DNA of 5,297 nucleotides, from IMG/VR virus record IMGVR_UViG_2703719355_000016, positions 1 to 5,297 of that record; one strand, 5' to 3'. The DNA comes from a virus. Lineage: Duplodnaviria; Heunggongvirae; Uroviricota; Caudoviricetes. The position numbers and the translations under genes were made by a program. Shown piece after piece: positions 1 to 5,297 of the stretch. The notes below the pieces were generated by a model, which saw only the letters and a list, made by a program, of their open reading frames with translations, was not told the origin of the DNA and did no database searches. How positions within the stretch are numbered: the stretch's first letter is position 1; every line of letters begins with the position of its first letter.

Positions 1-3000
1 GGAATAACAATCTGCCGGTCAAACGGCTGATCGTCATAAACCCTGACGGTAATGGTCCCTGATGGCCACCGCTCCGGTGCCCGGGAGTCCCGCGGAAAAG
101 CCTTACCCACTGTTTTGACTATATCGCCTTCAATCTGGTTGGCTGACAGTTTCCCCTTAATCTGACAGTTCTCATTAATTGTGACATTGTTGAGCGTCCC
201 GGCGTTCGCATTCACACTGCCACTGATATCTGCATTTTTAGCGGTCAGCTTTCCGTCCGGTGTCAGGGAAAATGCCGGAGGATTACCGCCGCTGGTAATG
301 GTGGGAGCCGTCAGGCGTTTCAGGAACACGTCGTTCATGAATATCTGATCGCCCTGACCAACAAACATCGGCTTTGTGTTGCCATTCGCAGGATTAATCA
401 TCGCAATCCTGTCTGCCGCCAGCAGCACCTGACTCTGCATTCCTGCTGGCGTATTCTCAATACCGGCACCGATACCCGCAATATAAAGGCGTCCGTCCTT
501 CATCTGTTGCAGCTTCACAGCCCACATGCTGTTCAGATTATTATTTGTATCAACCTGAACCTTCTGTATCTGCTGGATCGCTGCACTCTGGTCTTCCAGT
601 TTCTTATTGACGGTCTGCGTGATTTCATTACTGACATCCGTGATGGACGTTCTGATTTCCGCCAGGTCAGGCGCAAGCTGACCGTTATCAATCTGAGTCC
701 ACAACTCCTGAGCCAGATGGGTTTTCCCTATCTCTCCTTTGAAAAAATCCAGATAGCCGGATGCATCATCACTCGGCTGGCCAACAGCCTCCACAAATGC
801 CGATTTGCCAACGGTGTTCACACTGCGGATATAAAAGTAATAATCATGGCCCGGTTTGATATTGATACTGGCGGCTATCCAGTACAGCCCCGTGCCAAGG
901 TAGCGGGCTGTGGTTTCAACCTGCCTGATATCGGTAATCCGCGTTTCCGAAAACCAGAACTCAAACTGTACCGTCGGGTCATACACCGCAAGACGCGGGA
1001 CCGCTGTTATCTGAAAATAGCCCGGTGTCAGCTCAATCTGTGACGGCGCTGCCGGTGCGGCAATCCGGAACGATACCGACGCCGGATCGCCCTGCTGCCC
1101 CCACGCATTTACCGCCCGGACTGTCAGCCTGTAGTTCCCCGGCGCCAGTTGCGTGAAGCGGTATGTGGTTTCCGTCGTCCGGGCCGTGCTGACCAGCCGC
1201 TCACTGCCGTCATCCGCGACCACGGTCAGGCGAAGCATAAAGCTCACGCCCTTCACCACCTTCGGCGTGTCCCATTTCGCCTGCGCCAGATACTGACCGT
1301 CAGCTGCGCTCACCTCCACCTTCAGGTGCTGCACTGCCGGAGGGATGACGCTGTTCAGGGTGCCTGACTGCGGCTCAAAGCTGGCCCCGTTATCCACGAT
1401 GGCTTCCTTTTCCGGTACGTGCTGCACCGCCGTGATGGCAAAGGTGCCGTCCGTGTTTTCCCGGATGGAGACACAGCGGAACAGGCGACGACGCAGTGAC
1501 GGCAGGGAGAGTCCCCATACACCGTATGTCTCCACACCATCAGGCAGGGTGCTGACCTGTATCCGGTCCGGCGCGGGGTGTGCAGTGATGGCCACGCTCA
1601 CCGGCTTACCGCTGCCGTTAATCAGGTTCACCGTGGCGGCACCTGTCTCCGGCAGGGTCACCTCACGGTCCAGTGTCAGGGTGCGGCTGGCGGCATCGAT
1701 GGACAGGATACGTCCGCCGGTCATGGTCCCGGCATAGTCGTTATCACAGATTTCAATAATGTCACCGGGTGTGTGACGCAGCCCCTGTGACCCGAGCGTG
1801 AAATCCACCGTCTGCGTTTCCAGCAGTCCGGTCTTTATCACCCACAGCCCGGCACGGTGGGCCTGACCGCGACTGGTGCAACCGAACGCATCCATCTTCA
1901 GCAGGTTGCGCCCGTAGCGCAGTATGGCTTCCGGGTCTTCCACCAGTTCCGTGGAGGTCTGCCAGCCGTTCTGCGGGTCGGTGTAATTCACCTCCACCGC
2001 CGTGTGGCGGTCCTTCAGGGCGCTGAAGCTGTAGCGAAACCCCACGCCGTTATCATCCACCACCACATCGCAGTTGGTGTACGGCCACACCACATCCGAC
2101 GGGCGGTCCTGAACGAACGTCAGCGTCTGGCCGTTCCATACCGGCATACAGCGCATCGCCGAGCAGAAATCACTGAGAACGTCCCACGCCTTACGCTGTT
2201 GTGACAGGTACGCATTAAAGGTCATCCGCGGCTCTGTGCCCCCGAAACCATCCGGGACCGTCTGGTCGCAGTACTGCCCGATGGCATACAGCGCCCACTT
2301 GTCAACATCCGCCGCCACCAGACGTTTTCCCATGCCGTAGCGCGGGTGAGTCAGCATGTCCCACAGGCACCAGGCCGGGTTGTTGCTGTATGCCGGTTTC
2401 AGGCTGCCGTCCCAGATGCCGCTGTACGTGCGTTTTTCCGGGTCATAGTTTGACGGTACCTGGATGATGCGACCGCGGATATGGTAGTTCACCGTCATCT
2501 GCTGACCGCCAAACTGCTCCGCATCCACCTGCAGCCCCACAATCGCCGTGTTCGGGTAGCACTGTTTCACATCGATGATTTCGGTGTATGACGACCAGAG
2601 CGTCTTATTCTGCAGCTGGTCCGAGGTGCTGTCCGCTGTCTCCCGGACCATCCGGATGTTAAAGGGCCGCTCAGGCAGATTCTCCAGAATCACCGACGCC
2701 AGGTACTGTGAGGTGGTCTTGCCGTTAATGGTGACATCCTTTTCCGTCACCCAGTTACCGTTACGCTGCAACTGAATCAGCAGTCGGACAGAAGAGGGAT
2801 TACGGTCGCCCTTTGAGGTGGTCTCCAACAGTGACTGCACCCCGAAGGTGACCCGCAGGCGGTCAATGTTCGCGGATGTAATGGTGCGCGTTACCGGCTT
2901 TGCCTTCGTCACTTCCACGCCCAGTCCGGTTTCAGCTCCGGAGGACTCAAAGCCTTCCGGTGGTGTCTGCTCCTGCTCCCCGGCGCGCCAGACCGCGGTC

Positions 3001-3191
3001 ACACCGTGTATCACAGGATTGCCGTCCGTGTCCGTCAGCGGGGTTTTGTTCACCAGGATACTCTGCAGCCCCTTCACCGGGCCTTCTATCGGTCCCTCAC
3101 CAATCGCATCAATCACACTCATCATCTGCGTGGATTTGAGATTATCCTTCGCCTCTCGAGGCGTGTGCGCCCTGCCGCCACCTTTGCCCAT
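1..3191 (-). CDS. J: Host-specificity / tail-tip central fibre protein J (lambda gpJ homologue). Partial: 1063 codons in the window, C-terminal ~70 codons (receptor-binding end) lie beyond coordinate 1.
   Basis: Reverse-complement translation from the ATG at 3191..3189 reads [38 protein letters not shown]... and stays open to coordinate 3 (3189 nt = 1063 codons). It is collinear with lambda gpJ as I recall it, including [27 protein letters not shown] and [19 protein letters not shown] near the C-terminal side. GAGAGGA lies 5 nt upstream of the ATG on the minus strand. The provided ORF track omits it only because the frame has no stop inside the window. Confidence 0.93.
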
Positions 3192-3196
3192 AATGT

Positions 3197-3203
3197 TCCT
3201 CTC
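3197..3203 (-). promoter_or_regulatory. Shine-Dalgarno sequence for J (GAGAGGA on the minus strand, 5-nt spacer to the ATG)
   Basis: Plus-strand tcctctc at 3197..3203 is GAGAGGA on the minus strand, immediately upstream of the J start codon at 3191..3189. Confidence 0.6.
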
Positions 3204-3315
3204 AATTGGTATTATTAATCGCAGTGATAGGATATTGCACAGCTATTGCGCGATATCATCAGAACGCTGTTTGTTACCCTGTAACCAGCAAGCTCAGTCT
3301 GTTAACGGAATTAAT
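3204..3315 (+). promoter_or_regulatory. Divergent intergenic region between the J start and sodC; presumed to hold the sodC promoter, position not resolved
   Basis: AT-rich 112-bp spacer between divergently oriented genes. Candidate hexamers are TTGCAC (3235..3240) and TATCAT (3254..3259), but they are only 13 nt apart, which is too short for a canonical sigma-70 promoter. I cannot place a -35/-10 pair confidently. Confidence 0.3.
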
Positions 3316-3320
3316 GAGGG
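3316..3320 (+). promoter_or_regulatory. Shine-Dalgarno sequence for sodC (GAGGG, 4-nt spacer to the ATG at 3325)
   Basis: Sequence ttaatGAGGGttttATG directly upstream of the sodC start. Confidence 0.65.
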
Positions 3321-3324
3321 TTTT

Positions 3325-3852
3325 ATGAAATGTAAAATCATTGCTGCCATTGCCATGCTGACAGCAGCATCATGCGGATACGCAGCAGAACAGGAAGTCC
3401 CAATGAACCTTGTCAGTGCTGACGGAAAAGAAGTCAGCATTGGAAAAATAACCATTCAGGAGACCCCCTACGGTCTGCTGTTCACACCAGCCCTTCACTC
3501 TCTGTCTGAAGGCATTCATGGTTTTCATGTGCACGAAAAAGGAAATTGCGCCCCGGCACTGAAAGACGGAAAACCGGTCGCAGCATTATCGGCTGGCGGT
3601 CACTTTGACCCGAAAAACACCGGCAAACATCTTGGCCCCTGGTCTCCGGATGGACACCTGGGCGACCTCCCTGCGCTGTTCGTGACGCATGACGGAAAAG
3701 CGAACTACCCGGTCCTGGCCCCGAGACTGAACTCATTAAAAGAGATTAAAGGGCGTTCTCTCATGCTTCATGCTGGCGGTGATAACCATCATGACCATCC
3801 GGAGCCCCTGGGCGGTGGTGGTGCGAGAATGGCCTGCGGCATCATTCAATAA
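3325..3852 (+). CDS. sodC: Periplasmic Cu,Zn superoxide dismutase (prophage-borne SodC), 175 aa with an N-terminal Sec signal peptide
   Basis: Translation [23 protein letters not shown]... has a signal-peptide-like N-terminus (basic n-region, hydrophobic core, GYA/AEQ cleavage context). Hallmark bacterial SodC motifs are present: [13 protein letters not shown] (copper His ligands plus disulfide Cys), GGHFDP, HLGDLP (zinc ligands) and [12 protein letters not shown] (catalytic Arg plus second disulfide Cys). The track ORF 2818..3852 is the same frame extended upstream; the ATG at 3325 is the first start with a ribosome-binding site. Stop TAA at 3850..3852. Confidence 0.93.
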
Positions 3853-3858
3853 TCAGTC

Positions 3859-3889
3859 AGGTAAGGGGCGGGCCCCTTACCTTTATTCC
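3859..3889 (+). terminator. Rho-independent terminator of sodC
   Basis: Perfect 10-bp GC-rich stem AGGTAAGGGG (3859..3868) / CCCCTTACCT (3873..3882), 4-nt loop CGGG, followed by TTATTCCT. It begins 7 nt after the sodC stop codon. Confidence 0.75.
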
Positions 3890-4418
3890 TCAGGACGATA
3901 AATCCTTTCTCCCTGAAAAGAACGGCACATCCTCCCTCTCTGAGTTAATGTTTTTGTCGTGACATAAGAATAATTCCTTACACTCAATCTTCGTAACGCT
4001 CCCGCAGTTCCTGTCCGTGAGTACTGCGGGATTTTTTCGCTTTTATGCCTGCCGCCCGATAACCACCACCTTCCCGTCACCGCCTTCATCACGGGTACTG
4101 ATGTCCTGGGAGATTCGCCGGGAGCCAACCAGCATTTCCCCGTAAGGCACCGGCATCGGGTTCCCCTGGGCAATCATGTTATCCAGCGACGAAAAGTACG
4201 TGTTCTGTTTACCGTTATCCGTTGCCCTGTATTCCGGTGTTTTTGGCTTCGGGGCCAGCATCTGTGCCACACCACCCAGTATCATGCTGGCACCCAGTGA
4301 AAACAGCATCGTGGTGGCAGAAAAACCACCGGCTGCCAGGGCTGAACCCCATAACGCCATTGATGCCCCGGCAGTGAAGAACGACCCCACGATGGCCGCC
4401 GCCCCCAGCACAATCTGC
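3872..4418. repeat. Direct repeat, copy A: 171-bp non-coding module plus the 3' 376 bp of gene I. Homology may continue to 4750, but its partner would lie beyond the window end.
   Basis: Aligns base-for-base with 4751..5297 at a constant offset of 879 bp and no indels. By-eye count: 15 mismatches in 547 bp (1 in the 171-bp non-coding part, 14 in the coding part). Confidence 0.95.
4000..4037 (+). terminator. Second plus-strand hairpin with T-tract (terminator-like) inside the 171-bp module, immediately 3' of the gene I stop
   Basis: 9-bp stem TCCCGCAGT (4000..4008) / ACTGCGGGA (4023..4031), 14-nt loop, then TTTTTT (4032..4037) and CGCTTTT. The T-tract is on the plus strand only; the minus strand has an A-run before the stem and no U-run after it. 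So it would stop plus-strand (sodC-direction or module-internal) transcription, not the tail operon. Confidence 0.5.
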
Positions 4419-4723
4419 AGTCCACCCTTTCCGGCCCCGGCCAGTCGCGGCACAATGTGGATGACCGTTCCCTCACCCAGCTGTTCGTGAAGACGGGCGT
4501 ACACCGCCTCCGGTGCCGTGTCATCACCGGCAATACGTATCTGGTACCAGCCTTCGTTCATCTGACGGCGAAAGCCCGGCATCTGCATCGACAGGGCGCG
4601 AATGGCTTCCGCTGCCGTGTTCACATACAGGCTGAGGCGGCGGCCAAATCGTTGTAAATCCCCGTGAAGGCAGATACGTGCCAGTGGCGGTGACGCCAGG
4701 CTGAATGCGTTCGTCGTTGCCAT
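4043..4723 (-). CDS. I: Tail assembly protein I (lambda gpI homologue), 226 aa
   Basis: Translation MATTNAFSLASPPLARICLHGDLQRFGRRLSLYVNTAAEAIRAL...NGKQNTYFSSLDNMIAQGNPMPVPYGEMLVGSRRISQDIS... is collinear with lambda gpI as recalled (ARICLYGDLQRFGRR, QNTYFSSLDNM, GA-rich hydrophobic segment). ATG at 4723..4721, stop TAA at 4045..4043. Confidence 0.9.
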   Translation of the reverse strand: MATTNAFSLASPPLARICLHGDLQRFGRRLSLYVNTAAEAIRALSMQMPGFRRQMNEGWYQIRIAGDDTAPEAVYARLHEQLGEGTVIHIVPRLAGAGKGGLQIVLGAAAIVGSFFTAGASMALWGSALAAGGFSATTMLFSLGASMILGGVAQMLAPKPKTPEYRATDNGKQNTYFSSLDNMIAQGNPMPVPYGEMLVGSRRISQDISTRDEGGDGKVVVIGRQA

Positions 4724-4734
4724 TTTTCGGAATA

Positions 4735-4742
4735 CCTCTCCC
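4735..4742 (-). promoter_or_regulatory. Possible Shine-Dalgarno sequence for gene I (GGGAGAGG on the minus strand, ~11-nt spacer)
   Basis: Plus-strand cctctccc at 4735..4742 is GGGAGAGG on the minus strand. The spacing to the ATG at 4723 is at the long end of the functional range. Confidence 0.4.
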
Positions 4743-4878
4743 GTTTACTAGCCCCTTACCTTTATTCCTCAGGACGATAAATCCTTTCTCCCTGAAAAGA
4801 ACGGCACATCCTCCCTCTCTGAGTTAATGTTTTTGTCGTGACATAAGAATAATTCCTTACACTCAATCTTCGTAACGC

Positions 4879-4916
4879 TCCCGCAGTTCCTGTCCGTGAG
4901 CACTGCGGGATTTTTT
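4879..4916 (+). terminator. Copy of the plus-strand hairpin plus T-tract within repeat copy B
   Basis: Same stem and T-tract as 4000..4037. The single non-coding mismatch between copies (4022 vs 4901, T to C) falls in the loop and preserves the stem. Confidence 0.45.
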
Positions 4917-4921
4917 CGCTT

Positions 4922-5297
4922 TTATGCCTGCCGCCCGATAACCACGACCTTTCCGCCCCCGCCTTCATCACGGGTACTGATGTCCTGGGAGATTCGCCGG
5001 GAGCCAACCAGCATTTCCCCGTAAGGCACCGGCATCGGGTTCCCCTGGGCAATCATGTTATCCAGCGAGGAAAAGTACGTGTTCTGTCTGCCGTTATCCG
5101 TTGCGCGGTAATCCGGTGTTTTTGCCTTCGGGGCCAGCATCTGGGCCACACCACCCAGAATCATGCTGGCCCCCAGTGAAAACAGCATCGTGGTGGCAGA
5201 AAAACCACCGGCTGCCAGGGCTGAACCCCATAACGCCATTGATGCCCCGGCAGTGAAGAACGACCCCACGATGGCCGCCGCCCCCAGCACAATCTGC
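4922..5297 (-). CDS. I: Second copy of tail assembly protein I. 5'-partial: the N-terminal part lies beyond the window end.
   Basis: In-frame translation ...LGAAAIVGSFFTAGASMALWGSALAAGGFSATTMLFSLGASMILGGVAQMLAPKAKTPDYRATDNGRQNTYFSSLDNMIAQGNPMPVPYGEMLVGSRRISQDISTRDEGGGGKVVVIGRQA* differs from the complete copy at 4 residues (KPK/KAK, E/D, K/R, D/G). Same stop context at 4922..4924. The frame is open to the window edge. Confidence 0.85.
   Translation of the reverse strand, partial: QIVLGAAAIVGSFFTAGASMALWGSALAAGGFSATTMLFSLGASMILGGVAQMLAPKAKTPDYRATDNGRQNTYFSSLDNMIAQGNPMPVPYGEMLVGSRRISQDISTRDEGGGGKVVVIGRQA

Follow-up and report, generated by a model that had tools for sequence, protein, structure and literature searches.

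A promoter-less, sodC-linked variant of the PasB/EcOnc22-24 small RNA family in the tail region of a lambdoid prophage

Introduction

The window analyzed here is a stretch of 5,297 nucleotides (positions 1 to 5,297 of the IMG/VR virus record IMGVR_UViG_2703719355_000016, Caudoviricetes) that contains a 171-bp non-coding block in two nearly identical copies, each followed by a less similar copy of a coding sequence. The question that this locus raises is what the block is, and why its copies differ less than the adjoining gene. A sequence-only reading of the window had regarded the block as one module under functional constraint, possibly holding a small RNA (sRNA), or as the trace of a recent gene conversion. 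Here, the block was compared with related prophage loci, published sRNAs and complete Escherichia coli genomes.

Results and Discussion

Genomic Context

The window covers the tail end of a lambdoid prophage, in the orientation opposite to that of the late operon. Loci about 98% identical to it in Stx phages and in O157/O55 genomes are annotated as J (phage host specificity protein), sodC, tail assembly protein (I) and C40 peptidase (K). The features of the window are the following:

1..3191, minus strand: gene J, tail tip/host specificity, cut at the window start; the frame ends with ATG at 3191
3326..3852, plus strand: sodC, phage Cu,Zn superoxide dismutase, a moron of the sodC-F type; ORF, homologous loci annotated sodC
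3859..3882, plus strand: sodC intrinsic terminator, with a 10-bp stem and then TTTATT
3872..3936, plus strand: 3' flank of the sodC cassette (left part of the 171-bp block), occurring only with sodC
3942..4037, plus strand: sRNA copy A, almost certainly of the PasB/EcOnc22-24 family (alignment, covariance model, probe mapping); body and terminator without an own promoter
3972..3994, plus strand: candidate base-pairing region, AAUUCCUUA (3972-3980) and AAUCUUCGU (3986-3994), predicted single-stranded
4000..4037, plus strand: intrinsic terminator of the sRNA, 9-bp stem, 14-nt loop and T6
4043..4723, minus strand: tail assembly gene I, copy A, 226 aa, with the a-type allele at all 14 sites at which the A and B copies differ
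4724..4750, minus strand: remnant of gene K, 27 bp upstream of I copy A, ending at the duplication junction 4750/4751
4751..4815, plus strand: second flank of the sodC cassette, with half of the sodC terminator only and no adjoining sodC
4821..4916, plus strand: sRNA copy B, body and terminator, identical to the common sodC-linked allele and to Sakai Sp10
4922..5297, minus strand: copy B of tail assembly gene I, with the b-type allele and truncated at the window end

The sodC gene runs opposite to the tail operon and has the features of a lambdoid moron, being on the plus strand between late genes and having its own terminator, in which 6 of the 10 stem pairs are G-C. The sodC-F genes and the activity of the sodC-F promoter have been described previously (PMC2569942).

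No plausible ORF had been seen in the block, and this holds: the only candidates, 3883-4173 (minus), which overlaps I out of frame, and 4017-4145 (plus), were rejected as a small protein, and with them a coding role. In phage 1720a-02, the annotation of a 50-aa hypothetical protein (AGR48338.1; L003 2493-2645, minus) covers the sRNA terminator together with the end of I, and is most likely a false gene call on top of the sRNA gene.

Two Copies of a Composite Block

The copies at 3872-4042 and 4751-4921 differ only in T4022 versus C4901, confirming the single mismatch that had been reported in the hairpin loop, of which 4022 is the last base. The plus-strand, terminator-like hairpin described at 4000..4037 is also present, with 4000-4008 paired to 4023-4031, a loop at 4009-4022 and the T6 tract at 4032-4037. 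In the adjoining 376 bp of I coding sequence there are 14 differences between the copies (96.3% identity, where about 96% had been given), with 4 amino-acid changes among the 124 residues compared. The contrast between block and gene, 1/171 against 14/376, is marginal (p = 0.045, Fisher's exact test) and carries small statistical weight; the longest mismatch-free run is 150 bp in the block, and the coding part of I has runs of 126 and 110 bp.

The block is not the single module that had been assumed, as it consists of two unrelated pieces, the sodC flank (3872-3936) and the sRNA body with its terminator (3942-4037). The repeat, which starts at 3872, opens with 11 bases that form the descending arm of the sodC terminator, and the 65 bp on the left (3872-3936) were found only in sodC-carrying loci (BLAST; 15 loci vs 16 with sodC). 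In relatives without sodC this flank is absent, and homology to the window begins at about 3937.

The differences in I did not arise within the repeat. Each of the 14 is a common polymorphism in a set of 71 other loci, of which 4 have the full copy-A haplotype and 13 match the copy-B haplotype at 13/14 sites. Two blocks of sites in the 3' half of I (4067-4079 and 4190-4292, with the equivalent sites in copy B) have two common alleles each and reassort freely, also among sodC-linked loci, in which both a-type and b-type I occur. Given the common status of these alleles and their free reassortment, the I copies represent two distinct old alleles, with no divergence since the duplication. In turn, essentially one allele exists of the block linked to sodC, with three variable sites and one recombinant loop in about 11 distinct loci, as expected if all copies descend from one insertion event, and the T at 4022 is private to the window (0/71 other loci). 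Mosaic I alleles next to a single-allele block explain the contrast that had been read as constraint. Across 72 distinct related loci, the claim that the block is better conserved than the coding sequence is reversed, with a mean pairwise identity of 0.71-0.85 for the sRNA region and 0.87-0.97 for I, although these loci were chosen by I-protein similarity, which favours I. As judged from these comparisons, the near-identity of the two block copies is attributable to phage mosaicism and gives no evidence of special constraint.

The repeat extends past 4042 as a tandem duplication of 879 bp (3872-4750), with the second copy running from 4751 to the window end. The duplicated content comprises the sRNA block, gene I and 27 bp of K; the left edge lies inside the sodC terminator and the right edge 27 bp upstream of the I start codon. 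At the junction 4750/4751 there are at most 2 bp of homology, and in every E. coli genome searched the similarity to the C40 peptidase (K) gene breaks off at 4749-4752. The duplication is either a private illegitimate event, later patched through recombination with another I allele, or an assembly or chimeric-read artefact, and the identification of the sRNA given below is unaffected by this choice. It could also be held that the locus contains no element at all, the identity being a footprint of recent duplication, gene conversion or misassembly and the hairpin being incidental. This would agree with the absence of the junction from 5426 complete E. coli genomes, 132 loci, IMG/VR and JGI metagenome contigs, and with the up to 12 similar tail regions that such strains hold, which are hard for assemblers. 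However, with at most 2 bp of junction homology, an assembler would need junction-spanning reads, the single-copy form is found in 1360/5426 E. coli genomes and in Stx phages, and two homologues are experimentally detected sRNAs, all of which make this explanation highly improbable.

Assignment to the PasB/EcOnc22-24 sRNA Family

The segments 3942-4037 and 4821-4916 are, on sequence grounds, almost certainly homologous to the PasB/EcOnc22-24 family of prophage sRNAs. The earlier suggestion of a small RNA was thus well founded, the hairpin and T-tract of the block being the terminator of a PasB/EcOnc22-24 homologue. EcOnc22 (Sp15), EcOnc23 (Sp14) and EcOnc24 (Sp11) are homologous Hfq-CRAC peaks in EHEC O157:H7 Sakai (Tree et al. 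2014, PMC4104026), and for EcOnc22 a Northern band of about 85 nt and destabilization of the RNA without hfq are described (PMC4104026). PasB of EPEC E2348/69 is an 83-nt, Hfq-dependent RNA with 37 RIL-seq interactions (Pearl Mizrahi et al. 2021, PMC8550237), located on the minus strand at 1466343-1466261 between the tail assembly protein (I) gene and gpJ.

The published probes link these RNAs to the element. The Northern probe for PasB (PMC8550237 Table S6) agrees in 23/23 bases with the terminator loop of the E2348/69 I-J element, and the EcOnc22/23/24 probe (PMC4104026 Table S3C) maps immediately upstream of the hairpin, to the plus-strand RNA of the Sakai Sp15 J-I spacer; both fall on positions homologous to the window element. 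The Hfq-CRAC peak coordinates also land on the EcOnc22-24 probe site after a genome-version offset of 142 bp, which was derived from the statement on AsxR and stx2B in PMC4104026 together with the probe position. The PasB locus (L133 1262-1359, minus) and the EcOnc22-24 locus (L004 1337-1427, plus) belong to the same family and have the same I-J position. In the searchable literature, no link between PasB and EcOnc22-24 was found, and full-text search returned EcOnc22 only in a review (PMC7873438), where its function is listed as unknown; Table S6 of PMC8550237 gives EHEC homologues for PasA and PasD and none for PasB.

The window sRNA aligns over its full length with PasB (E2348/69) and EcOnc22 (Sakai). 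The motifs GCGTTA, a T-run, AAYTCCTTA, AATCTTC and CCCGCAG...CTGCGGGATTTTTT are common to the three, so that the window RNA resembles PasB in its 5' GCGUUA motif and U-run, in AAYUCCUU and AUCUUC upstream of the terminator, and in the CCCGCAG/CTGCGGG stem with its U tract. Identity to both PasB and EcOnc22 is about 62%, a gap that is bridged by graded variants at 68-97%, and BLAST ties the window element to the copies of Stx1, Stx2c and 1720a-02 phages. The sequence AUAAGAAUAAUUCCUUACACUCAAUCUUCGUAACGC is specific to the window variant, and EcOnc22/23/24, which occupy the same J-I position, differ from it in the middle region and in the terminator loop. A covariance model gave 90.4 bits for copy A and 92.7 bits for copy B, scores that are not independent, as the window is in the seed alignment. 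The seven pairs of the terminator stem CCCGCAG...CTGCGGG, followed by the U tract, are invariant in 27 distinct variants, and compensatory changes appear in 6/7 pairs once divergent paralogues are added, in an alignment fitted to the model. AATCTT is likewise invariant in the 27 variants and AAYTCCTT is kept in most of them. RNAalifold supports the terminator only, with no conserved fold beyond it; a 5' stem of the U-run with an A-run is predicted in the window copies and in PasB. The RNAs of the family are roughly 83-98 nt long.

The position of the element is also shared. In the window, the T-tract ends at 4037 and the I stop codon lies at 4043-4045, so the sRNA is antisense to I and ends about 5 nt from its stop codon; PasB, antisense between I and J with its terminator a few nucleotides from the I stop, and EcOnc22 have the same I-adjacent geometry. 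In contrast to PasB, the window copies lie downstream of sodC, which stands between the RNA and J, and are tandemly duplicated with gene I.

A search with all 4227 Rfam models gave no match in 3893-4042 or 4751-4921 at E <= 1, and there is no model for the family. A sub-threshold STnc400 match at 3816-3892 (plus; 23 bits against a gathering score of 80, E = 0.4) spans the last sodC codons and the sodC terminator, and is probably mere terminator similarity.

Comparison with Other Prophage and Hfq-Associated sRNAs

HnrS (EcOnc10-12), which represses hha (PMC13502914), is likewise a multicopy, Hfq-associated prophage sRNA with an intrinsic terminator, and shares the heptamer AAUCUUC with the window RNA. 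The PasB-family model gave a weak match on HnrS/EcOnc11 (Sakai Sp10, L134 31945-32035, minus; 20 bits, E = 0.27). Unlike the window RNA, HnrS is 66 nt long and located between lysis and packaging genes, and for this location it was rejected as the identity of the element. The hha-pairing seed of HnrS, CUUCUACCC, is complementary to the hha initiation region GGGTAGAAGTATG and is absent from the window RNA, whose pairing energy with hha (RNAduplex) did not improve on that with random windows; hha was therefore rejected as a shared target.

The anti-sRNAs AgvB and AsxR, at the PR' moron site (PMC4104026), are also short, convergent and next to a moron in lambdoid prophages; they differ in lying downstream of Q and stx, in belonging to another sequence family and in their length of about 51-60 nt. 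Neither of their Rfam models (AgvB RF02702, AsxR RF02703) matched in the window, and AgvB, AsxR, PasA, PasC and PasD, which lie near Q or lysis genes, were rejected as its identity.

CpxQ and SdhX are 3'UTR-derived, Hfq-associated sRNAs that share the terminator of the mRNA itself. The analogy would be possible if the window RNA were released from a sodC read-through transcript; unlike in CpxQ and SdhX, the sRNA body is set apart from the gene by a distinct sodC terminator, and such processing is hypothetical.

Promoter Replacement by the sodC Cassette

In E2348/69, the sRNA is directly preceded by the promoter TTCACA-16-TATAAT (11/12 matches), which the window copies lack, and in phage 1720a-02 by TTTGCA-16-TATAAT. 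The EcOnc22/23/24 copies keep the -10 element (CAATAAT) and have no sodC, the opposite of the window copies. Compared with the sodC-less relatives, the cassette at 3192-3936 replaced about 136 bp of the J-I spacer, in which the sRNA promoter and, close to the J start, a hairpin had been located. The replaced span reaches from the J start codon to the sRNA transcription start, and the sequences become homologous again with TCTCTG, which lies between the -10 element and the start site. The sRNA body is co-oriented with sodC, about 60 nt behind its terminator.

Both window copies lack an own sigma-70 promoter because the sodC cassette took the place of the native one, and the scans agree with the sequence-only reading, in which no convincing promoter had been found. 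No sigma-70-like site was detected in 3100-5297, the best result of a relaxed scan having 8/12 matches. Candidates for an internal or cassette promoter, TTAATG-18-AATAAT (3945-3974) and TTGTCG-19-TACACT (3954-3984), each with 8/12 matches, were rejected as neither is convincing. The window element is consequently described as a promoter-less, sodC-linked variant of a known prophage sRNA family, its copies being homologous RNA bodies and not complete genes of the PasB/EcOnc22-24 family.

The sRNA terminator occurs also in prophages without sodC, for which reason the earlier idea that two successive terminators insulate gene I is unneeded. A second conserved, G+C-rich hairpin is present beside the J start in sodC-less relatives (L133 1431-1454, plus; L003 2434-2411, minus; L002, about 2405-2432). 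Lying between I and J and followed by TGTTTTTG, this hairpin has the form of a terminator for transcription in the direction of the tail operon; in the window, the sodC cassette has taken its place.

Distribution

The whole 171 bp is present in 646/5426 complete E. coli genomes, in up to 8 places per genome, and was never annotated. The sRNA body alone extends to the 1360 genomes mentioned above, and the sodC-linked form was found in at least 539 of the 5426, including Sakai Sp4 and Sp10. Among phage records, the sodC-less Stx1 and Stx2c phages share only positions 66-171 of the block (window 3937-4042), and other Stx phages and 1720a-02 have copies that are 74-78% identical; in the sodC-less phages, a promoter-like site precedes the shared part and the same hairpin and T-tract follow it.

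The element does accompany gene I throughout, a point raised by the sequence-only reading and addressed in 120 IMG/VR loci retrieved from the sRNA pattern alone. In 115 of them I was adjacent and antisense, with the terminator 6-14 nt from I; of the remaining five, four have an I gene close by whose C-terminus is divergent, and the fifth lies at the end of a contig. Neither lambda nor loci with I proteins of 34-70% identity carry the element.

About one-tenth of the pattern-retrieved loci carry tandem arrays in the J-I spacer, with 2-4 complete PasB-like units of about 225 bp (L188 10000-10950, minus; L202 7600-8550, plus; L152 4300-4800, minus; L184 8050-8560, minus; also L154, L158, L185, L189, L230 and L235). 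Every unit comes with a promoter-like site (TTCACA...CATAAT/TATAAT) and a terminator, and the middle (seed) region differs from one unit to the next; in one unit the terminator stem is changed (CTCCCGT/ACGGGAG). These arrays may be undescribed, since one PasB variant per genome is reported as typical (Zhu, Shabalina and Storz 2026 preprint, 10.64898/2026.05.13.724894).

E. coli prophage or lambda I genes were also encountered on short, low-coverage contigs of assemblies labelled Streptomyces, Neobacillus, Pseudoxanthomonas, Chromatium, Bradyrhizobium and others; these contigs (L008, L011-L024, L034-L036 and others) are evidently contamination, including lambda control DNA.

Expression and Proposed Mode of Action

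A discrete, Hfq-dependent RNA, Northern bands of about 83-85 nt and many Hfq-mediated RNA pairs have been shown in the relatives only (PMC8550237, PMC4104026). By analogy with them, the window sRNA would act in trans, base-pairing through the single-stranded AAUUCCUUA...AAUCUUCGU, with the terminator and U tail as the presumed Hfq-binding handle. The region 3972-3994 is unpaired in the predicted centroid fold, and the PasB seed has been placed just upstream of the terminator (Zhu et al. preprint, 10.64898/2026.05.13.724894). As AAUUCCUUA...AAUCUUCGU is anti-Shine-Dalgarno-like, repression at ribosome-binding sites would be the likeliest mode.

A regulator acting in cis, on processing of the tail late transcript in the I-J spacer or on J expression and with no trans targets, would also account for an RNA that is perfectly complementary to this transcript and for an element that is always antisense and next to I, the more so as the sodC-less forms place it within about 240 bp of the J start. 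The 37 interactions of PasB with other RNAs on Hfq (PMC8550237) argue against it, as do a body that varies freely around invariant short motifs, which is the pattern of a trans seed, and the roughly 750 nt that sodC puts between the RNA and the J start in the window. A purely cis-acting role is therefore improbable, and pairing in trans is the mode retained here.

Expression of the window copies themselves is a separate matter, with the chances judged to be close to even or slightly below. With no own promoter, the sodC-linked RNA would be made only if transcription of sodC ran through its terminator, perhaps with later processing at the 5' end. This read-through may be low, because the terminator looks efficient, with its 10-bp stem and 6 G-C pairs. 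The sodC-linked copies of Sakai Sp4 (NC_002695.2 1202487-1202676) and Sp10 (1963484-1963673) have no peak in the list of Hfq-bound orphans of Tree et al. 2014 (PMC4104026), an absence that depends on the peak filters of that study, in which the promoter-bearing Sp11, Sp14 and Sp15 paralogues are listed.

These observations bear on the possibility that the window copies are silent relics, which lost their promoter to sodC and make no sRNA, the hairpin being at most a back-up terminator against antisense transcription into I. The native promoter was demonstrably replaced, the missing Sp4 and Sp10 peaks agree with silence, and recency alone can explain the low diversity of the sodC-linked copies. 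Against this, the approximately 11 distinct sodC-linked loci show no indels and no disruption in the terminator stem or in either conserved motif, although these copies are too recent for a test. The reported 5' end of mature PasB, about 15 nt downstream of the start predicted from the -10 element and equivalent to about 3955 in the window, is also compatible with a processed RNA that needs no own promoter, though the offset may be a mere sizing error. A silent relic is a serious possibility, rated at about one in three in our judgement. Rather unlikely is the further proposal that the sodC moron captured the sRNA gene, so that the RNA is produced by sodC read-through and processed at the mature PasB 5' site.

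Taken as a whole, the locus is, in all likelihood, best explained by a composite block, in which an sRNA body and terminator are joined to the tail of a sodC cassette, with mosaicism accounting for the near-identity of its copies.

Conclusions

A widespread, unannotated prophage block is here assigned to a known family of Hfq-associated sRNAs, and two names that are separate in the searchable literature, PasB of EPEC and EcOnc22-24 of EHEC, are joined. As a caution, identity between repeats in mosaic prophages should not be read as constraint. The insertion of a moron rewired an sRNA gene, removing its promoter and leaving the sRNA co-oriented behind a virulence-associated gene. If the sRNA was captured in this way by sodC, its production would follow sodC-F expression (log phase, anaerobiosis and intracellular growth) instead of its own promoter, and the private 879-bp duplication would add a second sRNA copy without sodC upstream.
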